A stretch of 64,000 nt of DNA from Halarcobacter sp. (GCA_963676565.1 OY781089.1:1984001-2048000); one strand, 5' to 3'. Positions 2,153-29,489 are shown, counted from the first letter of the stretch. Notes: generated by a model from the letters alone, not told the origin. A program made the numbers and translations.

Positions 2153-2498
2153 AATCTGGATTGAAGATGATAACAATAATCTAATATTTGGTGGTGGGAA
2201 AACACAAATATTAGAACTTATTGATGAAACTGGTTCAATTGCAGAAGCATCAAAAAGAGCAGGGATGAACTATAAAAAAGCATGGAGTCATATAAAAATA
2301 CTTCAAAAGTATATTGATGATGAACTTGTTATTGTTCAAAAAGGTAGAAATAGTGGTGGTACAAGATTAACACCAAAAGCAAAAGAGTTAGTTGAGAATT
2401 TCAAAAAATTAAAAGAAGATGTAAAAGCTTTTAGTGATGAAAGATTTACCCAACTTTTTTTAGACAAAAAAATGATTAATTGTGCTAAGGAAGATTAG
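2136..2498 (+). CDS. modE: ModE-like winged-HTH regulator without molybdate-binding Mop domains
   Basis: FGGGKTQILELIDETGSIAEASKRAGMNYKKAW...GGTRLT is ModE N-terminal-like; GTG at 2136 preceded by AAAGGGA. Confidence 0.8.
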   Translation: MKSKIKIWIEDDNNNLIFGGGKTQILELIDETGSIAEASKRAGMNYKKAWSHIKILQKYIDDELVIVQKGRNSGGTRLTPKAKELVENFKKLKEDVKAFSDERFTQLFLDKKMINCAKED

Positions 2499-3473: not shown

Positions 3474-3482
3474 GAGAATATT

Positions 3483-10186: not shown

Positions 10187-10204
10187 TAAAACTAGCCTCT
10201 TTTT
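10172..10204. terminator. Probable bidirectional terminator between convergent genes
   Basis: GCTAGT-AAA-ACTAGC core flanked by A-rich and T-rich tracts. Confidence 0.55.
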
Positions 10205-11178: not shown

Positions 11179-11264
11179 ATTAATTCCCTGTTTAAATTTT
11201 GTATTATGATACTAAAAAGTACTTAAATAGGGTATAAAAGAGCTATAAAGCTCCCTTATAATTT

Positions 11265-12569
11265 TTAGTCTTCCCTTTTTTCTTTCCCTTGATAGTTTCT
11301 ATTAGTGTTTTCATCTCTAATTTGAATAGAGTCTTTTCCAACAAATTGAGATTTTGATATTAGTTCAACATTATTGTTAGCAATTTTAGACATTTGTGAT
11401 GAAATTATTCTAACATTTTCTGCAACTTGTGCATTTTTTTGAGTTAGTGTATCTATTTGGGCAACGGTATTATTTATCATAGAAATACCTAATTCTTGCT
11501 CTTTTGAGGATTGAACAACCTGTTCAATTAGTGAAGTAGTACTATTTATTTTTGCACTTAGGTTTTCATAACCTAATATCATATCATCAGCAATACCTTT
11601 ACCTTCATTAGCCTTAATTGATGCAGATTCAACCAAATTTTTTATCTCTTTTGCTGCATCAGCACTTCTGTTTGCTAGATTTCTAACTTCCCCCGCTACT
11701 ACTGCAAACCCTTTTCCAGCTTCTCCTGCCGTTGCTGCTTCAACTGCTGCATTTAAAGAAAGGATATTTGTTTGAAAAGCAATTTGGTCAATCATATCTA
11801 AAGCTTCATGAACATCCTTTGTTGAATTATTAATTTCATTCATTGCTGTAACTGTTTTTGTTGCTAGAGATAAACCACTTGAAATAGAATTAGTTACTTC
11901 AGCCCCATAGTTTTCCATTTCATTTGCCATATTAGTATTATTTTTGATTGTACTTGTTATCTCTTCAATAGCTGCAGATGCTTCTTCTAATGAAGCAGCT
12001 TGTGTTGTAGTTGATTGAGATAAGTTTGATGAAATATCAAGTAAGTCAGTAGATTCTTTTTGTAAAACTAAACTTGTTCTATATGTACTTTCTAATTGTT
12101 TAGTTATCTCTTTTTTTAGAAAATTAATCCCTTGGGTCATTTTTTTAAAATCCCCACCTCTAAACATTGTTTCATCAATTTCATGTAAAAAGTTTTGTTG
12201 AGAGTATTCATTTAATATCTTTTCAATATTTGCCAATGCTTTTTGAAGCTTTTCAGACATAACATTCATTGTCTTTGCAATATAGTTAAGTTTATTATTT
12301 GAACTTTCTTTTGTAACTCTATCTTCTGTAAAACCATCTGATAGTTTTTCTGCACAAAGCATTATTTCACCATAGATAGTTAAATCTTCAGTATTTTTAC
12401 TTTGAATTAAATTGGAAATATTTAAAATCTTTTCCATAATAAGCTTATCTGTACCACTACAAGTATTATCAGATTGTTCAATTTTATTGATATCCTCTTT
12501 TATGTAATCTTCTATAGTATCTAAAGCTTTTAATATATCATTTGAGTCTTGATTATTTTTAAAAAACAT
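11265..12569 (-). CDS. Cytoplasmic methyl-accepting chemotaxis protein
   Basis: IAFQTNILSLNAAVEAATAGEAGKGFAVVAGEVRNLA signalling hairpin; no TM segment evident. Confidence 0.93.
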   Translation of the reverse strand: MFFKNNQDSNDILKALDTIEDYIKEDINKIEQSDNTCSGTDKLIMEKILNISNLIQSKNTEDLTIYGEIMLCAEKLSDGFTEDRVTKESSNNKLNYIAKTMNVMSEKLQKALANIEKILNEYSQQNFLHEIDETMFRGGDFKKMTQGINFLKKEITKQLESTYRTSLVLQKESTDLLDISSNLSQSTTTQAASLEEASAAIEEITSTIKNNTNMANEMENYGAEVTNSISSGLSLATKTVTAMNEINNSTKDVHEALDMIDQIAFQTNILSLNAAVEAATAGEAGKGFAVVAGEVRNLANRSADAAKEIKNLVESASIKANEGKGIADDMILGYENLSAKINSTTSLIEQVVQSSKEQELGISMINNTVAQIDTLTQKNAQVAENVRIISSQMSKIANNNVELISKSQFVGKDSIQIRDENTNRNYQGKEKRED

Positions 12570-12578
12570 TTTATGGCC

Positions 12579-12962
12579 TTAGTCTAAAGTTTTATACAGT
12601 TCTTCTGCATTTTTAATCTCTTCATCTGTTGGCTTTACCCTAACAGAGATATATCTTAAGTTACCATTTACATCTTTAGAAGGAAATGCCGTTGCATTTA
12701 CCCAATAATACTCACCACTTTTTGTTTTATTCTTAACAATCCCATTCCATATTTTACCAGCTTGTATAGTTTCCCACAAATCCTTAAATGCAGCCTTTGG
12801 CATATCAGGATGTCTTACGTAATTATGTGGTTGACCTATTAATTCTTCTTTTGTATATCCTGCAATTTTACAAAAATCTTCGTTCGCATAAATAATTATT
12901 CCCTTTGAATCAGTCTCAGAAACAATCATTGTTTCCTTACTAAGTTTAACTTCCCCACTCAT
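12579..12962 (-). CDS. Stand-alone Aer/CetB-like PAS domain protein
   Basis: IVSETDSKGIIIYANEDFCKIAGY..ELIGQPHNYVRHPDMPKAAFKDLW; ATG 12962 with AAGGG RBS. Confidence 0.9.
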   Translation of the reverse strand: MSGEVKLSKETMIVSETDSKGIIIYANEDFCKIAGYTKEELIGQPHNYVRHPDMPKAAFKDLWETIQAGKIWNGIVKNKTKSGEYYWVNATAFPSKDVNGNLRYISVRVKPTDEEIKNAEELYKTLD

Positions 12963-13111
12963 TATTTTCCCTTTCAAAAGTTAAAAATAATATAATTATC
13001 CCCAGTATACAATAAAAGTGTATCTAAAATGTCTCTTTTTTCTAAAAAGTATCATTTCGTGTGAGTATTTTGTTGCTTTTTTTACTTATATTTCATTTAT
13101 AATAAATTGGA

Positions 13112-13117
13112 TATAAT
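13112..13117 (+). promoter_or_regulatory. Sigma70 -10 box of mutS2 (probable leaderless transcript)
   Basis: TATAAT 6 nt upstream of ATG 13124, no Shine-Dalgarno. Confidence 0.65.
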
Positions 13118-13123
13118 CCGCCA

Positions 13124-15322
13124 ATGAATGAGATATTAAAGAAATTAGACTTAAGTGATTATATAGATTCATTTTCTAAATTATTAGCTAGAGAAAAATC
13201 TATAATCCTAGAAGGGGATATAAACCTTCACCATAGACTTATTAGTGAATTATCAAAATTTGATTTAAAAGAACCAACAAAAGTTGCAAATCTTGACAAT
13301 GCATTGTTACATATACAAAAGCAAGGTATATTAAAAATATATGATATTTATGAGTTCATAAAAATCATTAAATATTTTAACTATTTAAAAAAGTTCAACT
13401 TTGAAGGAAAACTTGCTGAATGGATAGATAGAATTATAATTCCAACAGAGATTAACAAAATATGTGATTACTTTGACGAAAAAGAGAATTTAAGACAAGG
13501 TGTTAATGAAGATTATGATGCAATTAAAGGTGCAATTTATAATAATAAGCAAGAGATAAAACAAAGCCTTTATAAACTAATCAATAACACAAAACTAAGA
13601 AGCTATTTAGTTGATTCACAAGTTCACTATGTAAATGGTGAAGAGTGTTTATTAGTTCGTGGTGGCTTTAACCATGTTATAAAAGCAACTGTTTTAGATA
13701 GATCAAACTCTGGATTTTTTTATGTCTTACCCCATAGTGTTAGTAACTTAAAACAAAAACAAAGTGATTTAATAAATAAGCAAGAAGAGATACTTCTTAA
13801 AGTGTGTAAAGAGATAAGTTCTCTTTTTGAAAAGAATTTACTATTTTTAAAATTTATTAATAAAGAGTTTGATAGATTTGATCATTATCAAGCAAGAATA
13901 TTCTTTTCAAAAATAGGGGATAAGAATTTTATATTACCTAATAAGAAAGGTAAAAACAAACTAGTAGAGTTTAAACATCCAGCATTAAGTGATGCAAAAG
14001 CTATAAGTATAGATTTTTCAAAATCAGTAGTTATGATTACTGGGGTAAATGCTGGTGGTAAAACTATGATGTTAAAATCAATTCTATCAGCTGTATTTTT
14101 ATCAAAATACCTTTTACCATATTATACGCACCATACAAGTGAAGTTGGAACCTTTAAAGAGATTGCTGCTGTATTAGATGATCCTCAAAGTGTTAAAAAT
14201 GATATCTCAACTTTTGCAGGACGTATGGTAGAGTTTTCTAAACTATTTTCTTCAAAAAGTGCAATTGTAGGTGTAGATGAAATAGAACTAGGAACAGATT
14301 CAGATGAAGCAGCTAGCTTGTTTAAAGTTATAATAGAAGAGTTAATTCAAAAAGATATAAAAATCATCATAACAACACACCATAAAAGACTAGCTTCTCT
14401 TATGGCTTCAAATGAAAATGTAGAATTAATAGCTGCACTTTATGATGAAGAGAATCAAAAACCAACTTATGAGTTTTTACAAGGTACCATTGGAAAGTCT
14501 TATGCCTTTGAAACTGCTTCAAGATATGGAATACCACATAATGTAATTAAAAAAGCAAAAGTAGTATATGGTGAAGATAAAGATAGGTTAAATGAACTAA
14601 TAGAAAGAAGTAGTGCCTTAGAAATAGAGTATAAACAAAAGATTAAAAAACTTGAAGAAGAGCAAGAGAGATTTGAAAGATTAAATAAAAATCTAAAAGA
14701 GGCTAAAGAGAGTTTAGATGAACATATTTATGAAGAGAAATCAAAACTTCATAAAGAGTATAAAGATGCAAGAGAAGAAGCAAAGAAAGCTATTAAAGCA
14801 AAAATAGCTGTAGGGCATCAACATCTAAATGTAGCCCATGCAAAAGCTCAATCAATAAAAACTGAAAAAGTTCAAGAAAAAGTTGAACTTAAAGTAGGAG
14901 ATAGAGTTAAATATAGAAGTTCAAAGGGTGAGATTATATCTATAAAAGGGAAAAAGGCTTTTATAGAAAATGATATGGGGATGAAGATGCAAGTCTTACT
15001 TTCAGACTTACAAAGAAGTGGAAACCCACCTGAGATAAAAGCAAAACCAAAAGCTAGTGTAAATGTTCAAAGACCAGACTCTGGACATGTAAAATTAGAC
15101 CTACATGGACAAAGAGCAGATGAGGCAATAGAAAATTTAGATAAGTTTTTATCTGATGCACTAATTGCAGGCTTTGATGAGGTATTAGTTTATCATGGAA
15201 TTGGTACAGGAAAGCTATCATATGCTGTAAAACAGTTTTTAGATAAACATCCACGGGTAAAATCATATGAGGATGCCCATCCATCTTCTGGCGGCTTTGG
15301 AGCTAAAGTTATTAAACTTTAA
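13124..15322 (+). CDS. mutS2: Endonuclease MutS2
   Basis: ITGVNAGGKT, ISTFAGRM, VDEIELGTD, ITTHH; C-terminal Smr domain LDLHG...HGIGTG...GGFGA. Confidence 0.96.
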   Translation: MNEILKKLDLSDYIDSFSKLLAREKSIILEGDINLHHRLISELSKFDLKEPTKVANLDNALLHIQKQGILKIYDIYEFIKIIKYFNYLKKFNFEGKLAEWIDRIIIPTEINKICDYFDEKENLRQGVNEDYDAIKGAIYNNKQEIKQSLYKLINNTKLRSYLVDSQVHYVNGEECLLVRGGFNHVIKATVLDRSNSGFFYVLPHSVSNLKQKQSDLINKQEEILLKVCKEISSLFEKNLLFLKFINKEFDRFDHYQARIFFSKIGDKNFILPNKKGKNKLVEFKHPALSDAKAISIDFSKSVVMITGVNAGGKTMMLKSILSAVFLSKYLLPYYTHHTSEVGTFKEIAAVLDDPQSVKNDISTFAGRMVEFSKLFSSKSAIVGVDEIELGTDSDEAASLFKVIIEELIQKDIKIIITTHHKRLASLMASNENVELIAALYDEENQKPTYEFLQGTIGKSYAFETASRYGIPHNVIKKAKVVYGEDKDRLNELIERSSALEIEYKQKIKKLEEEQERFERLNKNLKEAKESLDEHIYEEKSKLHKEYKDAREEAKKAIKAKIAVGHQHLNVAHAKAQSIKTEKVQEKVELKVGDRVKYRSSKGEIISIKGKKAFIENDMGMKMQVLLSDLQRSGNPPEIKAKPKASVNVQRPDSGHVKLDLHGQRADEAIENLDKFLSDALIAGFDEVLVYHGIGTGKLSYAVKQFLDKHPRVKSYEDAHPSSGGFGAKVIKL

Positions 15323-17483
15323 GATATTTTTTTCTAATCTCATCTTTACATAATGGTTTAGAAAATAAATATCCTTGTACATAATTAGCATTTATATCCT
15401 TTAGCCATTGAAGGCTTTCATTGGTTTCCACCCCTTCAATTACAATGTCACAGTTTAATCCCTGTGTCATGGAAATCATTGAAGTTACCATCTTTCTAGC
15501 TTGTTCATCTTTATCAATTCTAAAAGTAAAAGATTTGTCAACTTTTACTACATCTATTGGGAGGTTATGTAACTGTGATAATGAGGCATACCCTGTCCCA
15601 AAATCATCTAAATAGATTCTTGAACCTTTTTTTGATAATTGATTTAGTTGAAAGTTTAAACTTTCAAGATTTTCCATTGTACTTGTTTCTGTTATCTCAA
15701 AATTAAAATTTTTTAGTTGAAGTGCATGTTTCAATGCGATAGATTCAAAATTCTCTATAAAACTCTCTTTCATTAGTTGTAATACAGAAAGATTTACAGC
15801 AATTGGTAGATTCTTAAGATTATTTTCTTTGTTAAATTTATAAAAGATACAAACTTCATTGAAAATAAGTTCCCCAAGTTCTGTTATCAAACCTTCTGAT
15901 TCTGCAATTGAAATTATATTTTCAGGATTAATAAATTCCTCATCATCATTTTTTACTCTTAAAAGTGCTTCTAATGAGTTGATTTCATTATTTTTCGTAT
16001 TAAAAATTGGTTGGTAGAAAACCTCTAAATATTTTGATGGATTTTTTAATGTTTTTAATAAAATATTTTTAAAACTATCTTTTTCTAAAATATATTTTTC
16101 ATCCTCCTCTTTAAATATAGAAACTTGATTTCTTCCTGCATTTTTTGATCTATACATTGCTGAATCAGCTCTACTCATTAATTCTGCTGTAGTTGTTCCA
16201 TGATCAGGGTAAATAGATACACCAATTGATGTACCTATATTGTGTTCATTATTATTTATAAAAAAAGGTTTTCTAATCTCCTTTATTAAAGACTCTGCAA
16301 TTTTTAATATAATCTTCTCATCTTGAATTCTAGATAATATAATTACAAACTCATCTCCCCCAATCCTTGCTACAATATCATTTGTTCTAACTTTTGATAA
16401 TATTCTTTGTGCAGTTTCTTGAAGAAGTAAATCACCTTCGTGGTGTCCATATATGTCATTTACTTGTTTAAAATGATCTAAATCTAAAAATAAAACAGCA
16501 TTTTTTGTTTTTTTTCTTTTTGAGTTTTCAAGTAAATTTGAGAAATTAATATTTAAAAAATGTCTATTAACAAGTCCAGTTAATACATCATAGTGAGCTA
16601 ATCTATCTAATTCATATTGTCTTTTCTTTCTATCAGTAATATCTGAAAAAATTGCTATATAAAACATTTTTTTAGTTACAGGTTCAATAACTCTGTTTAT
16701 TTGTAACCACTCTGGAAAAATATTATTATTTTTTCTTTTGTTCCAAACCTCACCAGCCCACCAACCATGGTGTGTTATAGATTTCCAGATATCACTGTAG
16801 AAATCTTTCGTATGTCTTCCTGATTTAAGTATACTTGGAGTTTTTCCTAGTACAAAGTCTTGGGAATAACCTGTTATTTCTGTAAATGCACTGTTGACTT
16901 TTAAAATTTTAGCTTCTTCATTTGTAATTATTACACCATCTTTTAATTGATCTAATACTAAATGAGATAGATAATTAGAGCTTTGTGAACCATCAGAATC
17001 ATATGGCAAGATTACACCCATAATTAGTATACCTCTTTCATAGTTTTGAACATCTAGTTTTTTTAATGATAAACTAAAACTTTTTTGATTTTTTAATAAT
17101 AAAAAATGGAAATTCATAGATTTTTGAGAGGTGTCTTTTAGAAATGTTTGAAATTTTGAAGTATATTCCATAAAAACAGATTGATCAAGAAACGTTCTGA
17201 AGTTTTGTTCTAAAATATTAAATTTCCCATTTTCAAAAAAGTTAATAGCAGTTTCATTAAGTTTTTTAATTTTACCAAACTTATCAATTATTACTAGTAT
17301 ATTTGGCGATTGTTCAAAATAGGTACTATAATCTTTTTCTATATTTATCCCACTATATAATAAGTCATTTTCTAATATTTGACAGTCTTGTTTTTGTTTA
17401 AAAAGTTCCTGTTGTAAATCAACAATTATTTGATTTAAACTAGAAATTTGTTCTTGATATGCTCTTATTTCTTCATCAAACAT
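15312..17483 (-). CDS. Coiled coil-PAS-PAS-GGDEF-EAL diguanylate cyclase/phosphodiesterase
   Basis: YDVLTGLVNR, RTND I-site, RIGGDEF, LEALLR, DDFGTGY, KVDKSF, EGVET all intact. Confidence 0.93.
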   Translation of the reverse strand: MFDEEIRAYQEQISSLNQIIVDLQQELFKQKQDCQILENDLLYSGINIEKDYSTYFEQSPNILVIIDKFGKIKKLNETAINFFENGKFNILEQNFRTFLDQSVFMEYTSKFQTFLKDTSQKSMNFHFLLLKNQKSFSLSLKKLDVQNYERGILIMGVILPYDSDGSQSSNYLSHLVLDQLKDGVIITNEEAKILKVNSAFTEITGYSQDFVLGKTPSILKSGRHTKDFYSDIWKSITHHGWWAGEVWNKRKNNNIFPEWLQINRVIEPVTKKMFYIAIFSDITDRKKRQYELDRLAHYDVLTGLVNRHFLNINFSNLLENSKRKKTKNAVLFLDLDHFKQVNDIYGHHEGDLLLQETAQRILSKVRTNDIVARIGGDEFVIILSRIQDEKIILKIAESLIKEIRKPFFINNNEHNIGTSIGVSIYPDHGTTTAELMSRADSAMYRSKNAGRNQVSIFKEEDEKYILEKDSFKNILLKTLKNPSKYLEVFYQPIFNTKNNEINSLEALLRVKNDDEEFINPENIISIAESEGLITELGELIFNEVCIFYKFNKENNLKNLPIAVNLSVLQLMKESFIENFESIALKHALQLKNFNFEITETSTMENLESLNFQLNQLSKKGSRIYLDDFGTGYASLSQLHNLPIDVVKVDKSFTFRIDKDEQARKMVTSMISMTQGLNCDIVIEGVETNESLQWLKDINANYVQGYLFSKPLCKDEIRKKYLKV

Positions 17484-17500
17484 AATTATTTCCTATTAAA

Positions 17501-20320
17501 CTATTTAAAAAATAAAATTCTATCAGGATATAAAGGATCAGGACATTTTTCATGTTTATATTTAACAACATTTCTATTTTTATATTTATCTAAAATTGTA
17601 ATACTACTCCAACCATCACTATCGATTGTATTATTTTTAAAGATGGTATTTTCAATTTCATTTTTAGTAATATTTAAAAAAAGTTTTTCTAAACTTAATT
17701 CTTTTAACTCTCTAGCACTATAATTGAAAAGTTTTTCAGCTAAAAAGTTTGTATGAATTATATTAGAATTTGTATCTACACAAATTATTGGATATTTAGA
17801 ATAAGAACCTAATAGTCCTATAAATTTTTCATGTAATTGATCTGATAAGTAAGTTCTATCTTTTACTTTTTCAAAAAATAGTATTGCACCTACAACCTCT
17901 TTATTATCAAATTTATAAGGAACAATTCTAAGGTCATGATTAATTCTTCTACTCCTTAGATTTATTACAGATTCTTTTTCTAATTCTATTACATTTAAAA
18001 GTTCTGTTCTTAGATTTGGAATATCCATGGTAAAGCCAAATGAAGTTACAACTTGTCCAATGTCATCATGGATTAGTTCAAATAATTTCCCTGCTTTATT
18101 TGTATATCTTTGAAGTCTTAATCTGTTATCAACAAATAAAATATTTTCATCTATTGAACTTAACATTGCAGATAAATCATTGTTTACTTTTCCTAATTCA
18201 AAAGATTTGACTTCTAATTCCTCATTAACCGTTGAAAGTTCTTCATTTGTTGATTGAAGTTCTTCATTAGCAGTTTGAAGCTCTTCATTTGCAGATTGAA
18301 GTTCCTCATTTGCAGATTGAAGTTCTTCATTTGTTGATTGAAGTTCCTCATTACTTGTTTCCAAATCTTGAATAGAACTTTGTAATCTTTCTCTAAAAAT
18401 CTCAATCTCTTGTTTTAATTTATTTTTACTTAGTTCATCAATATCTTTATGATTAACACTAATTGCTGATTCATCAGATAATTCTATTTCTAAAAAAGCA
18501 ATAACAAACAAATCATCTTCTGATGGAGTAATTTCCTCTATAATAATATAAAGTATTCTTTTTTTATCTTTAGAATTGAAGAATAAAGCTTGAGAAGCAG
18601 CATGCTTCTCTTTTTTTGCCTGTTGTAAAAGAGACCTTATATCAATTTTTAAATCATCTTTTGCCATATTAAAAATATTTGTTTCTACTCTTCCTTGCGG
18701 AAATTCAAGGTACTCATTGATATTTCCTTTTATATGTAACATTTCACCCAATGAATTTATTACAATAGAAGCAGGCAAAACTCTATCATTTAAGATTTTA
18801 TTCATTTTATCTTCTAAGCTAACTTCTTCATCTAATTTCATTTTGGTTTTAGTACTAATAGTTTTTTGATTTTTTACTAGTTTTTTTGCACCTTTTACAT
18901 AGTCCAAATTAAAAGATATATCTGTTTTTTTTCTTTTAAATAGTTGGGATTTATTTGTGGAAACATCATATAGTTCAGGAGCTGTGTTTACAGCAGATTC
19001 AGATTTTCCTAAAAACAGATAACTATTTGGTCTTAGGGAATAGTGAAAAGTTTGAAAAATCTTTTTTTGTGTTTCATTGTTAAAGTATATTAGAACATTT
19101 CTACAACTAATTAAGTCTATATTAGAAAAAGGTGGATCCATAATTACGTTTTGTTTTGCAAAAACAACATGATCCCTAAGGGATTTATTTACTATATAAG
19201 AGTTATCATTTTCTTGAAAGTATCTTTTTAACAAAGCTTGATTAATCTCTTTTACTTGAGATGCAGAATATACAGCTTTTCTAGCTAAATTAAGCGCATA
19301 ATCATCAATATCTGTTGCAAATATTTGAAATGAGACAGGTTTATCTTGTTTTCTTTTTGCTTCTTCAAATAATATTGCAATAGAATAAGCTTCAGCTCCA
19401 TTTGCACAACCCGTAACCCAAACTCTAATAGGATCTTTTAAATCTCTTTTTTTAACAATATTATCGACTACTATTTTTAGGTCGTCAAATGCTTCTTTAT
19501 CCCTAAAAAAGTCTGTAACTGAGATAAGTAAGTCTTTAAATAAGGCTTCAACTTCAGAAGAAGAACTATTTAAGAGATTAATATAATCTTCTAAAGCAAC
19601 TATTTTATTAACCACCATTCTTCTTTGAATTCTTCTTTGAATTGTTTTTAATTTATAGCCACTAAAATCATATGAGGTTTGATCAAATATTGATTGAAAT
19701 ATTTTTTCTAAATTAGTTCTTATTTTTGGTTCAGTAACTTTATATTGATACTCTTCCGTTGTATTTATTAGTTTAGGAAGTTCAATTGCAATCTCATTTG
19801 CAGGAAGAATTAAATCAACAAAACCAGTTTCAATTGCAGATTTAGGCATACCAGAATATTTTGCACTTATTTCATCTTGCGCTATTGTTATTCCACCAGC
19901 TGCTTTTATAGCTGTGATTCCAACAGAACCATCACTTCCAGTACCAGATAAAACTATACCTATACTATAATCTTTTAATTCATCCGCCATAGAGCTAAAT
20001 AGTTCATTTATTGAAGGTTTTGGCCCAATTAATGCTGCAGGAGATAATTTTATCTCTTCATCCTTAATTGAAGCATTATGTCCAGGAGCAATAATATAAA
20101 TTGAACCTTTTTCAGGTTTAATATCTTTTTCTACCATATGAATAGGTAGATTTGTAACCCGTGCTAATAAATCTTTTAGAATAGTTGGATGGGTTGGGTC
20201 AAGATGTTGTGCAATTATATAAATTGCATCACTAAACTCTAGGTTTTTTAAAAACTCTTTTATTGCATCTAGTCCCCCAGCACTAGCACCGATTCCTATC
20301 CAGAAATTTTTCTTTTTCAT
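17501..20320 (-). CDS. CheB methylesterase-CheR methyltransferase fusion with coiled coil and PAS domains
   Basis: CheB triad GASAGG / AQHL / LSGTGSDG; CheR VTDFFRD, RVWVTGC, IFATDID, DLISCRNVLIYF; NEEL heptads; C-terminal PAS-like segments. Confidence 0.94.
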   Translation of the reverse strand: MKKKNFWIGIGASAGGLDAIKEFLKNLEFSDAIYIIAQHLDPTHPTILKDLLARVTNLPIHMVEKDIKPEKGSIYIIAPGHNASIKDEEIKLSPAALIGPKPSINELFSSMADELKDYSIGIVLSGTGSDGSVGITAIKAAGGITIAQDEISAKYSGMPKSAIETGFVDLILPANEIAIELPKLINTTEEYQYKVTEPKIRTNLEKIFQSIFDQTSYDFSGYKLKTIQRRIQRRMVVNKIVALEDYINLLNSSSSEVEALFKDLLISVTDFFRDKEAFDDLKIVVDNIVKKRDLKDPIRVWVTGCANGAEAYSIAILFEEAKRKQDKPVSFQIFATDIDDYALNLARKAVYSASQVKEINQALLKRYFQENDNSYIVNKSLRDHVVFAKQNVIMDPPFSNIDLISCRNVLIYFNNETQKKIFQTFHYSLRPNSYLFLGKSESAVNTAPELYDVSTNKSQLFKRKKTDISFNLDYVKGAKKLVKNQKTISTKTKMKLDEEVSLEDKMNKILNDRVLPASIVINSLGEMLHIKGNINEYLEFPQGRVETNIFNMAKDDLKIDIRSLLQQAKKEKHAASQALFFNSKDKKRILYIIIEEITPSEDDLFVIAFLEIELSDESAISVNHKDIDELSKNKLKQEIEIFRERLQSSIQDLETSNEELQSTNEELQSANEELQSANEELQTANEELQSTNEELSTVNEELEVKSFELGKVNNDLSAMLSSIDENILFVDNRLRLQRYTNKAGKLFELIHDDIGQVVTSFGFTMDIPNLRTELLNVIELEKESVINLRSRRINHDLRIVPYKFDNKEVVGAILFFEKVKDRTYLSDQLHEKFIGLLGSYSKYPIICVDTNSNIIHTNFLAEKLFNYSARELKELSLEKLFLNITKNEIENTIFKNNTIDSDGWSSITILDKYKNRNVVKYKHEKCPDPLYPDRILFFK
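18215..18352 (-). repeat. 21-nt coding tandem repeat (7 x NEEL heptad)
   Basis: NEELQST NEELQSA NEELQSA NEELQTA NEELQST NEELSTV NEEL. Confidence 0.92.
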
Positions 20321-21795
20321 ACTTTCCCTTCAATAATTTTAAAAAACTGATTTGTGAACTTTAAGGCAGCTAATTCTTCTTGACTATGAAATTTATTACA
20401 AAACCCATGTTTTTCTTCAACAAATCTTTCAAATGACCTTCTAGGAGATAATCTAAAAACTCCTTTATGTTCTACAATAGATTTATTAGGATTTCCTGCC
20501 CAAGTTAGTTTTTCAGAAATTTCATTTCTAAACCAGTAAGATCTTAGTGCTGAGTTTTGAGATTCTAGTTTGATCCCTAAAACTCCAACTGGTCCTATAA
20601 AGTTCAAATCAAAATCTTTTGATATAGAGTTTGAAACTATTTTATTAGAATTTGAATTTAAAAAGTATTCATCTAAGTTTCTTAATGAATTGTTTTCAGG
20701 TATTGAACCTATTGCCCATATTTGAGAGTTATAAATTATAATTAAACCATCGCTGTTTAATAGTTGTAAAAAATGATTTTTATTCTCTTGTATTTGTATT
20801 TCGAAATTATTTAAATCAGAGATAGTATTTAATAAAGAGTTTATTTTATGCTCAACTAAATCTAAATAGGCAATTTTTTCTTTTGCAAAGAAGTTTTGTA
20901 AACCTAGTGAAAACTGTTGGATAAGATTAAGTATATTATTTCTTTGTAAAGGATCTATTCTTTTATATGTGAAGTTATGGCAAGCTAACAGCCCCCAAAG
21001 CTTGTTTGCAATTATAATTGGGATTGATAAAGATGTTATAACTCCCATATTTTTTAAATATTCAATATGAACGGGGGAAACACTTCTTATATCTGAAAAA
21101 GTTAAATCTGGTTTACTCCCATCTATTGTTAAGATATCTATATCTTTTGAGTTTACATCAGCAATTAATCTGTAGGGATTAATCATATACATATCCCTTG
21201 CAATTTTAGGAATATCTGATGCAGGGAACATCAATCCTAGATAACTATCAGCACCTTCATTTGAAACTTTTTCTGCAATCACTTTTCCTGACCAATCATC
21301 TTGAAATTGATATATTAAAATTCTGTCAAATTTCAGTTGATTATCTATAAGTTCTAAAAATGTATTTTTATAGTCATTGTATTCAATATCATTACAAGGA
21401 GCAATTGTAAGTTCTGTATTGTACTTAATAGTTTTACTTAAAAATTCTTCTTTAATCTTTTGAATATCTATAACTATTGAATTATCAATTTTAGATAACT
21501 TAAGTAAAAGTTTTTCTTTTTTTAAAGTTTTATAAAAAAAATTTACATCTTCATCATCTAATTTATATTCATCTAAAAGTTTGTAAAAATCTTTTAAGAG
21601 ATTTTTTATATTTTTTCCTAGCAAATCTTTACAATCAATTGATAAAAAATCTTTGATATTTTCAGAAACGTGGCTTATTATAAAACTTTCACTATCAAAT
21701 ACTAAAAGTGAGGAAAAAGATTGAATCATTCCAGTTAAGTGAAGTTGCTCTTGTTCACATGTTTTTAATAATTCATCAATATCATAGTTTTGCAT
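20317..21795 (-). CDS. bphP: Bacteriophytochrome photosensory core only (PAS2-GAF-PHY)
   Basis: N-terminal Cys13 (TCEQEQLHLTGMIQ), FPASDIP, RSVSPVHIEYLKNMGV, LWGLLACH, WAGNP, LSPRRSF; stop right after PHY helix. Confidence 0.93.
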   Translation of the reverse strand: MQNYDIDELLKTCEQEQLHLTGMIQSFSSLLVFDSESFIISHVSENIKDFLSIDCKDLLGKNIKNLLKDFYKLLDEYKLDDEDVNFFYKTLKKEKLLLKLSKIDNSIVIDIQKIKEEFLSKTIKYNTELTIAPCNDIEYNDYKNTFLELIDNQLKFDRILIYQFQDDWSGKVIAEKVSNEGADSYLGLMFPASDIPKIARDMYMINPYRLIADVNSKDIDILTIDGSKPDLTFSDIRSVSPVHIEYLKNMGVITSLSIPIIIANKLWGLLACHNFTYKRIDPLQRNNILNLIQQFSLGLQNFFAKEKIAYLDLVEHKINSLLNTISDLNNFEIQIQENKNHFLQLLNSDGLIIIYNSQIWAIGSIPENNSLRNLDEYFLNSNSNKIVSNSISKDFDLNFIGPVGVLGIKLESQNSALRSYWFRNEISEKLTWAGNPNKSIVEHKGVFRLSPRRSFERFVEEKHGFCNKFHSQEELAALKFTNQFFKIIEGKV

Positions 21796-21800
21796 AATAT

Positions 21801-22385
21801 CTAGCTTTCAAAGTGTTTTTTTAGTACTATAAATGTTTCTGTGGCACCTAAAGTTGTTTCATATTTATCAATTTCTACTTCATCTAACCACTTTGAAAAA
21901 CTTAACCATTTATTCATGGTATCCTGTTTATATGATTGATAATATCTATTTGGTACATTGTTCTTAAAGTTTTTTTCTATCATTTTAACTATTTGCATCC
22001 CACCCATAGTTGAACCCTCTAATACATAAAGTGCACCAACTACAGAAGCGAAATTATTTAATGTTTTAAATTCTATATTTTTTTTAATATTTAAATTGTC
22101 AATTTCTACATTTAAATAGTTTAAATCTTCAATTAACCATTTCGTTTTTTCAAGTCTTTTTTCTATATCTTCAAGCTTTTTTTCCACAAATTCATTTTTA
22201 TGGTTTTTAATAATTAATTCGATTATACTAAAAAAAGAATAAAGTTTTTTTAATAAAAAAATATACTCCTCTTCAGACAAATTATTTTTTTTGATTTTTT
22301 CGAATAAATAGAATTCTTCTAGCCATTCATGGAGTGGATAAGTAGCATTTTTTAGATGGTTTTTCAGTGAATCGTTATTTTTCAT
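21801..22385 (-). CDS. bphO: Biliverdin-producing heme oxygenase
   Basis: LKNATYPLH proximal His and GALYVLEGSTMGG distal helix; 5 nt upstream of the phytochrome. Confidence 0.92.
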   Translation of the reverse strand: MKNNDSLKNHLKNATYPLHEWLEEFYLFEKIKKNNLSEEEYIFLLKKLYSFFSIIELIIKNHKNEFVEKKLEDIEKRLEKTKWLIEDLNYLNVEIDNLNIKKNIEFKTLNNFASVVGALYVLEGSTMGGMQIVKMIEKNFKNNVPNRYYQSYKQDTMNKWLSFSKWLDEVEIDKYETTLGATETFIVLKKHFES

Positions 22386-22458
22386 AAATTAATATCTCCC
22401 CTAGTAATAATTTATTTTATCTTATTATTAATAAATTAATATAATTTTTATATACGGT

Positions 22459-24831
22459 TTATATATTTTTTGGATTTTCAAAAGGGGGACTAAATAAGTA
22501 TCCTTGTGAGTAATCAATTCCTAACTCTTGTACCTTTTTTAAGATTGATTCATTTTCAACAAATTCTGCAATTGTTTTCATCCCTAAATCTTTCGCAAAA
22601 TTCACTATATTTTTACAAACTTTTTCACTAAGAATATCTTTATCAATATTTTTTATTAAAGAACCATCTATTTTTATAAAATCTGCTTTTAGTTTTAAAA
22701 GATATTCAAAATTACTATAACCAGTACCAAAATCATCAATAGCAATTCTACACCCAAAAGATTTAACTTTTTTAATAAAATTTAAAACAATTTCAAAGTT
22801 TTCAATTGATTCAGATTCAACTATCTCAAAAACAACTCTTTTACCAACTTGTGAGTCTGATAGTATTTTATAAATAAACTCTTTTATCTCAACATTTAAA
22901 ATATCTTCAATTGTTAAATTTATAGAAAAATTATATTCAAGGTCTTTGAATTTTTCTATGGTTTTTTCTATCATAATTTTTGTAATTTGATTGTAAAATT
23001 TAGTTTTCTTTGAAATTTCTAGAAAAAAGTAGGGTGATATTAATTTATCTTTTTTCCTCATCCTAACTAAAGCTTCATATTTTTCAACCTTTAAAGTTTT
23101 GTTATTTATAATTGCTTGATATACTGGTAGAATATTGTCTTTTTCTATTGCATCTTTAATGGATTTAGTCCATTTTATATTATTTTCATACTCTTTGTCT
23201 AAAGATATATCATCTTTGTAAACTAAGATATCTTTATTGTGTTGCTTTGCAATTTTAATAGTCATTGTTGCTGTGTTTAAAATTCTATTTTTTTCTTCAA
23301 AGGAGATTCCAATGGTAAAATTTAAATTGATAAAGTCTTCACTATCAATATAAAAATTTTCTTTTTTTAGTTGGGTGTTTATAGAGTTAATTTTTTGCAA
23401 AAAAAGATCAGTACTTATATCTTCATAAAAAATTACAAATTCATCACTATGTAAACGATAAATGTTACAACTATTTGAATCTTTTATAATGTTTAGTTTT
23501 TCTGCAAATCTTTTAAGTATCTTGTCACCAATTATATATCCATAAAAATCATTTATTTCAGAAAACCTATCAATATTTATAATTGCTAATGCAGGCTTAG
23601 TGCTTTTGTTTATATCATTTATAAGTTTATATCTATTTCCTAAGTTTGTTAGAATATCAGTATTAACAATAGTATCTAATCTTTCTTGTTGTTCAATAGT
23701 TTTAGTTATATCATGTCTTATTCCAATATATTCATTTATATTGTTTTTATCATCAAGAATAGGGACTATTGTAATATCTACCCAATAATAATTTCCATCT
23801 TTAGTGATATTTTTTAATGTTTTTTTCCAAACTCTTTTTGATCTAATCGTTGTCCACAACTCTTCAAAAATAGATTTTGGATTATCTGGATGTCTAATAA
23901 TATTATGGGGTTTACCAATTAATTCCTCTTTTGTATAGCCACTTATTTTACATAAGTTATCATTTACATAAGTAATATTACCTGCTAAGTCTGACTTTGA
24001 AACGATACTTGATTTATCCATCGCAATTTTGTAACTTTCAAATAAAGATATAGTCCTTTTTAATTCATATTCTATCTCTTTTATTTGACTTATATCTTGA
24101 ACTGTCCCAACAGACCTATATGGATTACCATCTTTGTCAAAGTAATTATCACATTTTTCTTCAACATATTTTATTCTTCCATCTTTCATTTTTAATCTAT
24201 GTTGAATAGCATAAGGTTTTTTTGTTTTAAGTGAATTTAAATATGCATTATTTACCATCTCTTTATCTTCTGGATGAATTGCATTTAAAAAATATTCATA
24301 AGAAGGTTCAAATTTAGATTTATCTATTTCGAAAATCTTATATATTTGATCAGACCAAAAGAGATTATTATTGATAATGTCATACTCCCAGTTACCAATA
24401 TTTGCTAACCTTTGAGCTGTATTCATTTTTTTTGTTATTTCAACTTCTCTTGTGACATCTTTTTGAATACCTAAAAAAAACTGTAGTTTATTGTTTTCGT
24501 CAAAAATTGGAGTTATTGTTAATTCACAGTAAACAATTTCACCATTTTTTTTCTGATTTTTAACAATAGTAGTTATTGATTTTTCTTCTTTTATTGCCTT
24601 TCTTATTTCATCTATTGATTTTTGTTCTTTATTACTTGTTTGTAGGAATCTACAGTTTTTACCCAAAACTTCATCCTCTTTATAATCAAACATTTTATAA
24701 AAACTTTTATTTGCGTAAATAATAGGATTATCGTCTTTTTTAGGATCAGTAATTAGTATTCCGTTTACTGCTTGGTCTATGATTTTTGAGAGAAAAATAT
24801 TTAAGTTTTCATCTAAATAATCTTCTCCCAT
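22459..24831 (-). CDS. LOV-PAS-PAS-degenerate GGDEF-EAL protein (putative blue-light-regulated c-di-GMP phosphodiesterase)
   Basis: ITDP..DNPIIYAN, GKNCRFLQ (Cys60), FFLGIQ LOV motifs; GGDEF site reads HSDEF; YEALVR, DDFGTGYS, KIDGSL, AEFVE. Confidence 0.92.
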   Translation of the reverse strand: MGEDYLDENLNIFLSKIIDQAVNGILITDPKKDDNPIIYANKSFYKMFDYKEDEVLGKNCRFLQTSNKEQKSIDEIRKAIKEEKSITTIVKNQKKNGEIVYCELTITPIFDENNKLQFFLGIQKDVTREVEITKKMNTAQRLANIGNWEYDIINNNLFWSDQIYKIFEIDKSKFEPSYEYFLNAIHPEDKEMVNNAYLNSLKTKKPYAIQHRLKMKDGRIKYVEEKCDNYFDKDGNPYRSVGTVQDISQIKEIEYELKRTISLFESYKIAMDKSSIVSKSDLAGNITYVNDNLCKISGYTKEELIGKPHNIIRHPDNPKSIFEELWTTIRSKRVWKKTLKNITKDGNYYWVDITIVPILDDKNNINEYIGIRHDITKTIEQQERLDTIVNTDILTNLGNRYKLINDINKSTKPALAIINIDRFSEINDFYGYIIGDKILKRFAEKLNIIKDSNSCNIYRLHSDEFVIFYEDISTDLFLQKINSINTQLKKENFYIDSEDFINLNFTIGISFEEKNRILNTATMTIKIAKQHNKDILVYKDDISLDKEYENNIKWTKSIKDAIEKDNILPVYQAIINNKTLKVEKYEALVRMRKKDKLISPYFFLEISKKTKFYNQITKIMIEKTIEKFKDLEYNFSINLTIEDILNVEIKEFIYKILSDSQVGKRVVFEIVESESIENFEIVLNFIKKVKSFGCRIAIDDFGTGYSNFEYLLKLKADFIKIDGSLIKNIDKDILSEKVCKNIVNFAKDLGMKTIAEFVENESILKKVQELGIDYSQGYLFSPPFENPKNI

Positions 24832-25092
24832 AAATATCCTTTTAAATTTTATAATTTTGTTACATTATTATAACATAACTTTTTTATAATAATCAAGTTG
24901 AAAAAACTTTTTCACAGACAAAATTATTTTATATAAAAAGTATTATAAGTTTCTTATTTTTAGGGATTTTTTTTTAAATAAATTATTATTATAAAGAGTG
25001 ATTGTTTTTTTGTATATTTTATTTAAGACTAGGGATAAAATAGTAATTTTTTGAAATTATAAACTTTCTAGTTAAGAAAAGACTAGTTTAAA

Positions 25093-25479
25093 CTAGCCTT
25101 TTAGTGATTTAATCATCTCTTCCATGATTACATTTGCTTGTTCATTTGGCGCTTCTAAAAAGTTTACTACAAACATATCTTCTAGTTCACAAACACCTAT
25201 TGCTCTTGGTCTTACAGCTAAAACCTCAGGAGTTGGTATCTCTTTACCAAAACAAAATATAATATTTTTAGCATCTTTAATATCTTCTCTTATAACTCCA
25301 TCTACTCTCTTTGTTTGTGAAAACTGATCAAATGTTGAAATATAAGCTATCACAGGATGTGCATCAATTTTGTCTTTTAGCGCTGCTAATATCTCATTCA
25401 CATTTTTGAATTTTAATTCATCTTTTGAAAATTCAATTTCAAAAATGTGGTATTTATCTTTAAAAGTTTTTTGTTTCAT
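25093..25479 (-). CDS. Conserved hypothetical protein (DUF6858/DUF302-like)
   Basis: AGGA RBS; IIFCFG..IP..LAVRPRAIGV motif. Confidence 0.75.
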   Translation of the reverse strand: MKQKTFKDKYHIFEIEFSKDELKFKNVNEILAALKDKIDAHPVIAYISTFDQFSQTKRVDGVIREDIKDAKNIIFCFGKEIPTPEVLAVRPRAIGVCELEDMFVVNFLEAPNEQANVIMEEMIKSLKG

Positions 25480-25492
25480 TTAATGTTCCTTT

Positions 25493-26041
25493 TTATTTTT
25501 TTAATGTTATAAACGATTTAATGACACAATCCATTCTTTCAGGGATATCGCTAGTATCCATATTCATATAATCAGTTTGTATCTTATAAATTAGTTTATT
25601 GTCAAGTTTAAATTCAAAGACTAGGTACCCAGCATAAAGTTTACATTTTGTTCCTTTTTTTCCCTTGTCTTCTTTATCATTTTCAAGTATGTAATAATCA
25701 ATTAAAAGTTTTTTATCCTTTAGTTTTTTGTCTTTTACATACTTATTTATAGTTTCATTTAAATATTCATTTGCTTTCTCTTCACATATATGTTTATCAA
25801 TTTGTGATTCCATATATACAGATTTTTCGATTCTAGATTTAATAATATAATTAGAAGTTTCAAGAAGCTCAATAGCCTCTTGTGCAAGTTGTTTATTCGA
25901 TATTTTTTCAAAGGTTGTAGTTTTTGTTTGACAGGTTAGTCTTTTTTCTTTTTTTATGTGGTCATTTGATTCTTTAGTTAGTAAACCATAAGAGAAAAAT
26001 CCAACAATAAAAATTAATATAAAAATAAAAAATTTGTTCAT
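25493..26041 (-). CDS. Hypothetical membrane-anchored/exported protein
   Basis: N-terminal hydrophobic helix, four Cys, AAGGGA RBS. Confidence 0.75.
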   Translation of the reverse strand: MNKFFIFILIFIVGFFSYGLLTKESNDHIKKEKRLTCQTKTTTFEKISNKQLAQEAIELLETSNYIIKSRIEKSVYMESQIDKHICEEKANEYLNETINKYVKDKKLKDKKLLIDYYILENDKEDKGKKGTKCKLYAGYLVFEFKLDNKLIYKIQTDYMNMDTSDIPERMDCVIKSFITLKK

Positions 26042-26135
26042 AGTATTCCCTTTTGTTAAGTTAAATAGAATACTAACGTAATAATTATTATAAGTAAATT
26101 AAATAAATGTATTATAATTTATAGTTATAATACAT

Positions 26136-29100
26136 TTATTTTGTAGAGACATCGAAGTTAAATACTGCCCATTTGTTTTTCTCATCTTCTTGTTTTGTAA
26201 TGTCATCTATAATAATAGATTCTTTTGGAACTTTTTTCATGTTAAATAAGTAATTTTTAATATTTTCTATTCTTTTTTTAGTAATTGAAATCAATTCTTT
26301 TTCTGAAACATTTTGTTTAGAAGCAAGGAAATCTCTTAAGTATTCTGTATACGCATCAATTTGAAAATACTCTTTTCCATTTTTATCTTTTTTATAATAT
26401 GTTTCTTTTATTTTATCTAAGTCTTTTACATCTTTTAACTCATTATAAAACTCTTCTAAAGCTTCTTTATAATCATCCCCTTCAGGTATCTTTTCCATTC
26501 TTTTTAATACAAATTGTTCAAATTTTATATCTTGAAGAGCTTTTTTATCTTTTTGAGGATTATAAATTGGTTTTATCTTTATTGCAAGTCTAGGTTTTTT
26601 TGATAAAAGTTTTGCAATACTATCTAAGGTCTCTTTTTCAGAAGGTACAATATCACTTTTACCAAACTCAAAATCCATACTTTTTATCTTATCTTCATCA
26701 ATTCCTAACATTGCCCCAAGTAAGGCAAATGGTGAAGTGATTGCTTTAACTATTAAGTTTGTGAATACTTTCCAAACAATAGGTGCAATTGAAAATTGAG
26801 GATCATCAACATTACCTGAAATAGGTAAATCAATATCTATAATTCCATCTGAATCTTCTAGTAATGCAATAGCTAGTTCTAATGGAAGATTAACTGCGTC
26901 TGGACTTTCTACTTTTTCACCCAATTTAATATCACTAATGATAACTGAGTTTTGGGCACTTAAATCAGATTTTTTGATATTATATTTTAAATCTAGATTT
27001 AATTTACCACTATCGATTTTTCTTCCTATAAATTTACCTGAATATGGTGTGAAATTTTTAATTGCTATATTTTTAAATAATAAATTTGTATCTGTTAATA
27101 ATTTAATATCATTAATATCTACAGTTCCAACAATTTTTGTATAACCATATTTATCAACTTTACCTTCCAATTGGAGTTTTGTTGGTTTTGAATTACTTGA
27201 GTTTAATCTTGAAAAACTACCTTGTAGTTCATTTATATTTGTTTTAAATGGTATTGGAAGATTTTTATCTTCAAAAGTCATCTTCATATTTTTTATTTTT
27301 ACTGGACCTACATCAAATTTAAAATCACTTTTTTCTTTTGAAGCTTTTTTAACTGTTTCTTCTTCAACTTTTTTGTCTTGTGATTTTTCTTTTTTCCCTA
27401 GTGTAATTGATACATAGGGTTTATTTATATCTGAAGATTGAACTTTTAAATTATTGTTAGCAAAAGAGATTTTATTTACATTTATGTTAATATTTTTTGC
27501 AAGAATATCAGTTTTTGCTTTTTTATCTTTTATATTTGTATTTGGATTATATAAATTTAAACTAGAAATTGAAATTGCACCTTTATTACTAATTAGATCA
27601 TTCAATTTCAAACTGATGTTTCTTGCAACAATATTTTGATCATTTTTATTATCAACAAAATAAATTGAAGGCTTAGCTAATCTAATTGTTTTAATATTTA
27701 GTTTTTCATCTTTTAGTGTTGTATTTAAAGCACTTAGATTTAAGCTTTTTGTTGTGATATTCATTTTACTTTTTTTATCATTGAATTTTATAGTTGGAAT
27801 ACTTAATTTTGTTTCATCAAGAGCTATATCATTTCCATTTAGGCTAAAGTTTTTAGCGGTGATAGTATTTGAGTTAGCTACAACATTCATAGAACTTTTC
27901 TTATCTAAAAAATAAATAGATGGGTTTGTTAGTTTTATATTTGAGATAGTTGTGCTTTCATTTTCTTTTTTGATATTAGCGATATTTAAATCAGTTTTTT
28001 TACTAAATATTGTGGTTTTATTTTTTAAGTCTTCAAAATCTAAAGAACTATTTTTTATATTTAATTCATCAAGTAAGATATTTGAATTTGAAAAAGAGAA
28101 ATTATTTGCATCTATTTCTAACTCTTTATTTAAAATTGATAAATTGTTGTTTTTATTGTCAATTGTAATATTAGGTTTTGACAAAAGTAAATTGGCTAGT
28201 GTAATATCACTACCATCAACTTTTAAATCTTTTAAAGTAATATTTAAATCATCTGTTTTTGTAAAAAGTTTGCTTGATAAATCATCAAATTTTATATTTG
28301 ATTCTTTTAAATCAAAGTTTTTTAAAGAGATAGTCCATTTGTTACTTTCTTCTTGTTTTTGTGAAGCATTTGTTTCAATTTCAGTATTTATAGGCTCTTC
28401 AACTTTTTCTTCATTATTTGCAATTAAATTTGCAAAATTAATTTCACCTTTTTCATCTACTATTGCATTAAGATTTAGTTGATTTAAAACTATCGCTTCT
28501 ATATCAATATTGTTTTTTGGATATTGAAGATTTATATTATCTATTGCAAAATTTTCTAAAGAAGTTAGTGTTTTTTCATCTTTTGATATATTAAGTTTAT
28601 TTAATGCTAAATAACCATCATTTAAAATGACACTCAACTTATTTTCTGTATCAACTTTATAACCAATTTTTAAATCAATAAAAGTCTCTTCACTTAAATC
28701 AAAGTTTACTAAATCTTTTTTGTAGTTTAAAAACTGTTTTGGTCTAATATTTTTTAGCTCTACATTTCCATACATTTTAAATGGAGCAAGTCTTAAACCT
28801 CCGTTTATTTCTAACTCACTATTTTGATTGATTAACATTCTTAATGAGTGTGAAGCTAAAATATTTCTAAATGTACCCATATCATAAAATGTATAATCAA
28901 ATTTACTAATATTTAATTTATATGGTTCATCATCTTTATTTAATTTTGTGAAGTTAATAGAAGCATTATCTAAAATAGTTCTATATATTTGGAATTTTAT
29001 ATCTGAACTAGTTGTTTTTGTTTCCTCTTTAGTTTTTTCCTCTTTCTTTTCTTTTAAAAGTTTTTGTAGGTTAAAGGTTCCATCTTCATATTCAATAATA

Positions 29101-29420: not shown

Positions 29421-29489
29421 AAGTAATCCTTTTCATATATCTACGATTATAACACATCAAAGTTAATAAAAAATAATAATTCTTGTATA

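Follow-up and report, generated by a model that had tools for sequence, protein, structure and literature searches.

The window examined here, a stretch of 64,000 nucleotides from Halarcobacter sp. (GCA_963676565.1, OY781089.1:1984001-2048000), carries on its minus strand five co-oriented genes for predicted light sensors and enzymes of cyclic di-GMP (c-di-GMP) turnover. In the order of reading, these genes specify a protein with a LOV domain (gene 1), a heme oxygenase (gene 2, bphO), a bacteriophytochrome devoid of output domain (gene 3), a CheB-CheR fusion protein (gene 4) and a PAS-GGDEF-EAL enzyme (gene 5). Their spacings, computed from the coordinates of the open reading frames (ORFs), are 73, 5, -4 and 17 nt, the negative value corresponding to the overlap of the phytochrome stop with the CheB-CheR start. 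The original prediction, made from the sequence of the window, had listed the same genes with this order and these gaps, and is borne out by the ORF list, by Pfam and by the translations. Features absent from its description are two additional PAS domains and a degenerate GGDEF domain in gene 1, as well as three PAS-like domains and a 95-residue helix in gene 4. None of the five proteins reaches the cut-off of any NCBIfam model. The source genome, a single contig of 3.34 Mb, encodes one PHY domain only. We report here that bphO and the genes for the phytochrome, the CheB-CheR-PAS protein and the PAS-GGDEF-EAL enzyme constitute a 7.1-kb accessory cassette, centred on a pairing of phytochrome and CheB-CheR that recurs in other bacteria (Table 1).

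Table 1. Coordinates of the locus features within the window
Feature	Position	Strand	Length or residues	Remarks
Gene 1, LOV-PAS-PAS-GGDEF(degenerate)-EAL	22459..24831	-	790 aa	Neighbour of the cassette, not a member
Gene 2, bphO heme oxygenase	21801..22385	-	194 aa	Pfam Heme_oxygenase
Gene 3, output-less bacteriophytochrome PAS_2-GAF-PHY	20317..21795	-	492 aa	Pfam
Gene 4, CheB-CheR fusion, PAS-like, long helix, PAS_10, C-terminal PAS	17501..20320	-	939 aa	
CheB methylesterase domain of gene 4	19781..20299	-	aa 8-180	
CheR methyltransferase of gene 4	18977..19711	-	aa 204-448	N-terminal helical part and S-adenosylmethionine (SAM)-binding domain
Seven heptads N-E-E-L-Q-[ST]-[TA] of gene 4	18206..18352	-	aa 657-705	Proposed methyl-accepting glutamate pairs
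Gene 5, PAS-GGDEF-EAL enzyme	15312..17483	-	723 aa	N-terminal helix and PAS-like domain
Four-gene accessory cassette, between mutS2 and LOV gene	15331..22461	-		blastn against congener G106 (L100)

Proteins encoded by the cassette

The product of bphO matches the Pfam Heme_oxygenase family (8.3e-14, 52 bits for a cut-off of 23), and this fold is encoded 5 nt from the phytochrome gene, as befits a BphO protein. Its residues 11-19 (LKNATYPLH) form what we take to be the heme oxygenase motif with the proximal histidine. The phytochrome itself displays PAS_2 (6.7e-12), GAF (7.8e-09) and PHY (3.4e-23) domains, all above the Pfam cut-offs, and its photosensory module matches 91 solved phytochrome sequences at E<=1e-20. 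The residues of a biliverdin-type bacteriophytochrome are all present: Cys13 and the motifs SDIP, SPVH, WAGNPNK and PRRSF line up with the same motifs of the solved structure 4r6l, and Cys13, D194-I195-P196, H243, W432-A433-G434 and P451-R452-x-S454-F455 are invariant in an alignment of 26 relatives (alignment A1). These presumably represent the N-terminal cysteine for biliverdin, the DIP motif, the chromophore histidine and the WxG and PRxSF motifs of the PHY tongue. The protein stops at residue 492, just past PHY, and possesses no C-terminal output module. Judged by these domains and residues, gene 3 is a phytochrome photosensory module, incomplete as a sensor kinase. A search of 5.8 billion proteins returned similarly short relatives, 116 of the 120 best ones listed consisting of PAS_2, GAF and PHY only, with lengths of 374-511 aa. 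The closest named relatives among the matches listed belong to Arcobacter arenosus (87%) and Arcobacter sp. LA11 (51%). The possibility of a truncated pseudogene was considered as well and ruled out, since over 100 clusters share the length of this protein, at about 490-510 aa.

Gene 4 encodes, in the order given by Pfam, a CheB methylesterase, CheR_N (1.2e-11), CheR (1.6e-53), a long helix, PAS_10 and PAS. Ser13, His39 and Asp130 of the CheB part align with positions 164, 190 and 286 of 1a2o, which we take to be the catalytic triad, and are invariant in 30 fusion proteins (alignment A3). The CheB receiver domain is missing, the esterase beginning at residue 8 with no Response_reg match in Pfam. 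The CheR part combines the N-terminal helical domain and the SAM-binding domain with their conserved motifs; it aligns with 5ftw, 1af7 and 1bc5, and its residues W301, C305, G308, E310, D337, R407, N408 and Y412 are invariant in alignment A3. Both domains look active, given the invariance of the CheB triad and of the CheR motifs across these 30 proteins. Separate, ordinary CheR and CheB proteins are encoded elsewhere in the source genome. An AlphaFold2 model of the gene 4 protein (mean predicted local distance difference test, pLDDT, of 77.4; predicted template modelling score, pTM, of 0.38) places after CheB and CheR a disordered linker, a PAS-like domain (about residues 502-613), an unbroken helix (residues 628-722), PAS_10 and the last PAS domain; the packing of these domains is unreliable because of the pTM value.

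The seven heptads listed in Table 1 fall within this modelled helix. At least three consecutive heptads are found in 66 of the 68 CheB-CheR proteins adjoining phytochromes, seven of them in 38 proteins and eight in 10. The position frequencies over 567 heptads correspond to N-E-E-[LM]-Q-A-[LSTA], with EQ (15) and QE (10) replacing EE in flanking heptads, and the glutamate pairs are invariant or nearly invariant in alignment A3. In chemoreceptors, methylation takes place at Glu-Glu-x-x-Ala-Ser/Thr motifs with heptad spacing, whose glutamine variants are deamidated by CheB. By their residues and spacing, the heptads of the helix resemble this receptor motif and its glutamine variants.

The product of gene 5 carries a GGDEF domain (1e-50) and an EAL domain (1e-64) with the sites of both activities: RIGGDEF with RTND five residues upstream, matching GG(D/E)EF and RxxD, and EALLR, EITE, DDFGTGY and EGVE on the EAL side. 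The same motifs appear in the consensus of alignment A3. The chemoreceptor, CheA and CheW of a Che- or Wsp-type chemosensory pathway are all missing from the cassette according to Pfam, and the chemoreceptor gene found at 11265-12569 is part of the chromosomal backbone, being also present in G106. The cassette resembles part of a chemosensory pathway in its working, but it is not one.

Conservation of the cassette and position of the LOV gene

A second genome of the same genus (G092) contains bphO, the phytochrome gene and the genes for CheB-CheR-PAS and PAS-GGDEF-EAL in the order of the window and in different surroundings. The identities between both copies amount to 52% for the phytochrome, 75% for CheB-CheR and 67% for GGDEF-EAL. 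A search of species genomes with alignment A1 yielded 165 confirmed loci, the best 80 of which were kept for counts; an earlier locus search with a single phytochrome had produced 44 pattern matches, none of them confirmed. The 80 loci were searched by tblastn with the domains of the window and the matches were assigned to open frames. They span the Alpha-, Beta- and Gammaproteobacteria and the Campylobacterota, and all encode related output-less phytochromes. A CheB-CheR gene lies within 6.5 kb of the phytochrome gene in 66 loci out of 80; the two genes share a strand at 65 of these, CheB-CheR being upstream at 62 loci and downstream at 4. It is a neighbour in 46 of the 53 loci offering at least 4.6 kb on both sides. 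Heme oxygenase adjoins the phytochrome in 16 of the 80 loci. The 14 loci without a CheR match comprise four that are cut by contig ends, one with a CheB remnant only and nine with other neighbours. Given the G092 copy and the adjacency at 66 of 80 loci, the arrangement of genes 2-5 is more than chance.

The form of the partner varies from one locus to another. CheR and GGDEF share one open frame at 56 of the 80 loci, typically of about 1,500 aa, and this fused form (CheB-CheR-helix-PAS-PAS-GGDEF-EAL) usually ends a few bases from the phytochrome start. The frame-sharing therefore identifies genes 4 and 5 of the window as the halves of one protein. CheR and GGDEF occupy different frames at eight loci: L014, L036 and L075 are split in the manner of the window, and others resemble assembly breaks or an unrelated GGDEF gene. 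The split form is thus found in the window, in G092 (L013), in L014 and in L036, with a second split in Gallionellaceae (L075). At three loci (L054, L032 and L092), a histidine kinase replaces GGDEF-EAL behind the CheB-CheR/PAS part; the constant partner of the phytochrome is therefore the CheB-CheR/helix/PAS part.

A quick maximum-likelihood tree was built with 85 photosensory modules, L032 and L082 being left out owing to a stop in the match. The output-less phytochromes are separated from four kinase-type ones by a branch supported at 98 in the Shimodaira-Hasegawa-like approximate likelihood ratio test (SH-aLRT). The window phytochrome groups with those of A. arenosus, G092, a Campylobacterales bin (L014) and Hydrogenovibrio halophilus (L036), also with an SH-aLRT of 98, and the next sequences outward belong to a Sulfurospirillum bin and a Helicobacteraceae bin (91 and 82). 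The 'split' label borne by A. arenosus on this tree was assigned without sight of the gene neighbours.

Several individual loci present features of their own. At a contig end of another genus of the family (G113:C81, L010), a phytochrome fragment (6-842, minus strand) and a CheB-CheR fusion gene (1100-3283, plus strand) are divergent and about 260 nt apart, and may constitute a further pairing. In G092 (L013), the cassette is adjoined on the opposite strand, at 1165-3806 (+), by a spore-photoproduct-lyase-like gene and a kinase-type ATPase gene; the occurrence of a gene of the ultraviolet (UV)-repair type near a light sensor may or may not be due to chance. Locus L037, titled as a Klebsiella pneumoniae bin, encodes an output-less phytochrome and a heme oxygenase with a convergent serine/threonine kinase gene, and its label is maybe a binning error.

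Gene 1 has a different history. Its product bears the LOV signature GKNCRFLQ at residues 56-63, in agreement with a flavin-binding LOV PAS domain with GxNCRFLQ and the adduct-forming cysteine. Its residues 13-140 score 201 bits against positions 1-128 of the YtvA-family profile of NCBIfam; this is less than the 250 bits asked of a whole protein, since the two have nothing but the LOV part in common. The GGDEF domain is degenerate (HSDEF) and the EAL motif is intact; from these motifs, gene 1 probably encodes a blue-light c-di-GMP phosphodiesterase. Full-length orthologues exist in G086 (90%), G106 (88%), G175 (64%) and G019 (62%). The NCRFLQ motif is kept in three of them, G019 having failed the pattern match. 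Of the 184 genomes of the family, 8 show any phytochrome match, and these four are not among them. Conversely, G092 carries the cassette without an adjoining LOV gene. In the blastn comparison with G106, the window is collinear at 88-90% over 10161-15330 and 22462-29510, the stretch in between differs and the likeness ends at the LOV stop codon. Since the flanks are collinear and the middle is different, the site between mutS2 and the LOV gene is a variable one, occupied here by the cassette. Of 81 other loci, one has a LOV motif close to the phytochrome. The LOV gene belongs to the chromosomal backbone and is independent of the cassette, and its position beside the latter is no more than chance.

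In G106, the corresponding slot (L100, 7455-12491) is occupied by genes for a YceI-like protein, an OmpR-type regulator, a Tll0287-like sensor kinase, an 83-aa fragment of a Mutator-family transposase and a cold-shock protein. The sole other LOV motif near a phytochrome in the 81 loci is that of a Methylococcaceae bin (L016), in which bphO is followed by a polyketide-cyclase-like gene and then, about 730 nt from bphO, by the gene for a stand-alone LOV-type PAS protein of 121 aa (HNCRFLQ; 12772-13137, plus strand).

These comparisons divide the original prediction. Its two-colour module of five genes finds no support, in view of the LOV orthologues of phytochrome-free genomes, the G092 copy and the G106 boundary. 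The gene neighbourhoods show a conserved trio of phytochrome, CheB-CheR and GGDEF-EAL, to which the LOV gene does not belong. Its other half, a phytochrome with its own heme oxygenase tied to CheB-CheR and GGDEF-EAL in place of a histidine kinase, finds support in the adjacency counts and in G092. The architecture, which it knew from nowhere else, turns out to be widespread outside the Campylobacterota, mostly with genes 4 and 5 fused.

Proposed signalling through the CheB-CheR scaffold

We consider it moderately probable that the locus comprises two units, a red-light cassette of four genes with a scaffold-coupled c-di-GMP output and an independent LOV gene of the backbone. BphO would supply biliverdin to the phytochrome, which would bind it at Cys13 and switch between red- and far-red-absorbing states. 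Because the phytochrome has no output domain, its signal would most likely be passed on by reversible, light-dependent contact with the neighbouring CheB-CheR/PAS scaffold. The scaffold, which in the window is split from its PAS-GGDEF-EAL output and in most other bacteria forms one protein of about 1,500 aa with it, would shift the balance between c-di-GMP synthesis by GGDEF and breakdown by EAL. The direction of this shift, as well as the binding of the phytochrome to the scaffold and the self-methylation considered next, are points that we infer from the sequences. The seven glutamate pairs in the long helix of the scaffold itself would most likely be methylated by the fused CheR and demethylated by the fused CheB. 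Such self-methylation would provide the light response with gain control and adaptation, as in chemoreceptors, and would dispense with a receptor, CheA and CheW. More tentatively, and with the doubts outweighing our confidence, the conserved trio of phytochrome, CheB-CheR and GGDEF-EAL might operate as a receptor-free adaptation machine, a soluble second-messenger enzyme that would read a detachable photoreceptor and reset its sensitivity by methylating its own helix.

A number of observations weigh against a dedicated pathway of this kind. Of the two proposed partners, the phytochrome has diverged more between the two Arcobacter genomes, with 52% identity as compared with 75% for CheB-CheR. 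Nine loci (L037, L058, L061, L066, L068, L073, L081, L087 and L089) are devoid of CheB-CheR despite ample flanks, and the adjacency counts are descriptive and non-independent, many loci being metagenome bins and many being kin. CheB-CheR fusions are present in 41 of the 184 family genomes for 8 with any phytochrome match, and the scaffold therefore mostly works without a phytochrome. The CheB-CheR scaffold is a general device, and the phytochrome would be one input among its inputs. Longer relatives numbered 259 at E<=1e-30, and none of the 120 that were listed is a covalent phytochrome-CheB/CheR fusion, a negative that counts as weak evidence. Finally, Pfam detects no MCPsignal domain in the helix, and the likeness to receptor methylation sites is therefore confined to the motif level. 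The fusion genes of the family mostly occupy frames of about 870-1,660 aa with about 40% identity to that of the window, and most of the genomes concerned are phytochrome-free.

Other readings of the locus assign different roles to the same genes. All five genes could form one operon that would merge blue light, sensed by LOV, and red light, sensed by the phytochrome, into a single c-di-GMP decision. The co-orientation of the five genes speaks for such an operon, together with the mere 73 nt from the LOV stop to the bphO start, in which no terminator-like site was detected and across which transcription from the LOV gene may continue; both units act on c-di-GMP and would meet at a shared pool, and the short LOV protein of L016 also lies near a bphO gene. 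We nevertheless judge it improbable, as the closest LOV orthologues reside in congeners without a phytochrome match (G086 and G106), the G092 cassette does without the LOV gene, collinearity with G106 stops at the LOV stop codon and LOV motifs are nearly absent near the other phytochromes.

Two further readings retain the cassette and modify its internal connections. CheB-CheR could act on the phytochrome or on the chemoreceptors of the cell and not on its own helix, GGDEF-EAL then being a parallel output; light would tune chemotactic adaptation if the chemoreceptors were the target, and the phytochrome would be a methyl-accepting photoreceptor if it were itself modified. Both enzyme domains look active, the translational coupling implied by the 4-nt overlap suits an enzyme with its substrate no less than a sensor with its scaffold, and genes for a PAS protein and a chemoreceptor lie only 2.3 kb away, at 11265-12977. 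This pair is however part of the backbone and exists in G106, where there is no cassette, and the genome has separate CheR and CheB proteins. Moreover, the enzymes are fused to a GGDEF-EAL or kinase output at most loci, and the conserved glutamate-pair heptads sit in the fusion protein, the phytochrome consensus of alignment A1 being free of them. Modification of another target appears unlikely in view of these points. Alternatively, the phytochrome and CheB-CheR/GGDEF-EAL could be co-regulated neighbours without direct signalling, the phytochrome acting via an unlinked kinase or regulator or merely binding pigment. The nine related phytochromes with other neighbours would suit such a situation, as would the fact that CheB-CheR fusions are five times commoner than phytochromes in the family. 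Their adjacency nonetheless outlasts changes in order (62 upstream, 4 downstream), in strand (L014), in fusion state and in output type. Being kept across four bacterial classes despite such changes, it is hard to explain without a functional tie, and we regard simple co-regulation as an unlikely explanation.

Known systems and genomic surroundings

Gene 4 belongs to what we take to be the family of CheB/CheR fusion proteins, K13924 or cheBR in pathway catalogues. It shares with this family a CheB without receiver, CheR, a PAS-like domain, the acidic heptad helix and PAS_10; it differs in ending without kinase or GGDEF-EAL, its output being a separate protein, and in its tie to an output-less phytochrome. 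In the literature searched, K13924 occurs only in papers titled as omics or genome surveys. Among phytochromes, RpBphP1 of Rhodopseudomonas palustris reportedly signals to PpsR2 by light-dependent binding to this other protein and not by phosphotransfer. In RpBphP1, this contact is made by a C-terminal output module, whereas the window phytochrome ends right after PHY. The Wsp system of Pseudomonas employs CheR-type and CheB-type enzymes in the service of a pathway with c-di-GMP output. It depends on a chemoreceptor in the membrane, on CheA and CheW and on a cyclase of the response-regulator type, none of which is present in the cassette, whose enzymes are fused together, mostly also to the c-di-GMP enzyme, and whose input would be a soluble photoreceptor. 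Wsp-like chemosensory pathways are described as a general class in PMC8846402.

Direct control of c-di-GMP enzymes by phytochromes is exemplified by BphG1 of Rhodobacter sphaeroides and by a phytochrome-activated cyclase (PDB 5llw), both named in titles within the reference list of PMC8846402. The structure 5llw is among those matching the window phytochrome. In these systems, red/far-red light controls GGDEF and/or EAL, as proposed for the cassette, through a photosensory module of the same type. They are single polypeptides, whereas the photosensory module is separate here in every case seen among the longer relatives listed, and the cassette would place a methylation enzyme pair between sensor and output. 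Gene 1 shares GKNCRFLQ, the LOV part of the YtvA profile and the EAL output with LOV-GGDEF-EAL and YtvA-type LOV proteins, and is distinguished from LOV-GGDEF-EAL proteins by two additional PAS domains and its degenerate GGDEF (HSDEF). There is apparently no studied Campylobacterota member of these groups in the literature searched, where a survey mention only was found.

In none of these nearest systems are a detachable photosensory module, a pair of methylation enzymes and an output in c-di-GMP brought together. A full-text literature search, whose scope excluded subscription journals, returned no description of a phytochrome/CheB-CheR/c-di-GMP operon, in line with the expectation of the original prediction that the system was undescribed. 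The red-light half of the locus is real and conserved, and as a signalling arrangement apparently undescribed. Two questions meet in it, namely how output-less phytochromes signal and what role the widespread CheB-CheR fusion proteins play, and the conserved pairing offers each question a testable partner. Light would serve as a switchable input for purified proteins, on which binding, methylation and c-di-GMP turnover are all measurable, and the split Arcobacter form, with sensor scaffold and output as separate proteins, would ease such work. Predicted sensors for red as well as blue light, both with an output in c-di-GMP, are thus carried by marine Campylobacterota that are not phototrophic, which suggests light as a signal governing surface attachment or motility in these bacteria. 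If the self-methylating trio is real, it would bring a chemotaxis-style sensory memory to a light/c-di-GMP pathway. Methyl-accepting signalling proteins would gain a new class, and light would offer a clean experimental handle on the whole CheB-CheR fusion family, so far unstudied.

Some minor features of the window complete this description. Terminator-like sites (4 seen versus 2.0 +/- 1.4 expected), all within the CheB-CheR gene, and promoter-like sites (65 seen versus 73.4 +/- 6.0 expected) are uninformative. Four RNA runs labelled with the species of a DNA data set that contains the region gave 0, 0, 0 and 1 reads. A perfect palindrome with an 8-bp stem (GAGAAGCAGCATGCTTCTC) is located at 18592-18610, also within the CheB-CheR gene, and matches the terminator scan on both strands; its role as a terminator is doubtful because of its location inside an ORF. 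In the backbone stretch 10161-15330, collinear with G106 at 90%, a single-PAS protein of 132 aa is encoded directly upstream of a methyl-accepting chemotaxis protein of 434 aa (11265-12977, minus strand). Three proteins are encoded upstream of the LOV gene on the minus strand (25093-29420), namely a DUF6858 protein of 128 aa, a protein of 182 aa whose sole match, to DUF6488, is weak and below the cut-off (E 0.002), and a DUF748/YhdP-like protein of 1,094 aa.

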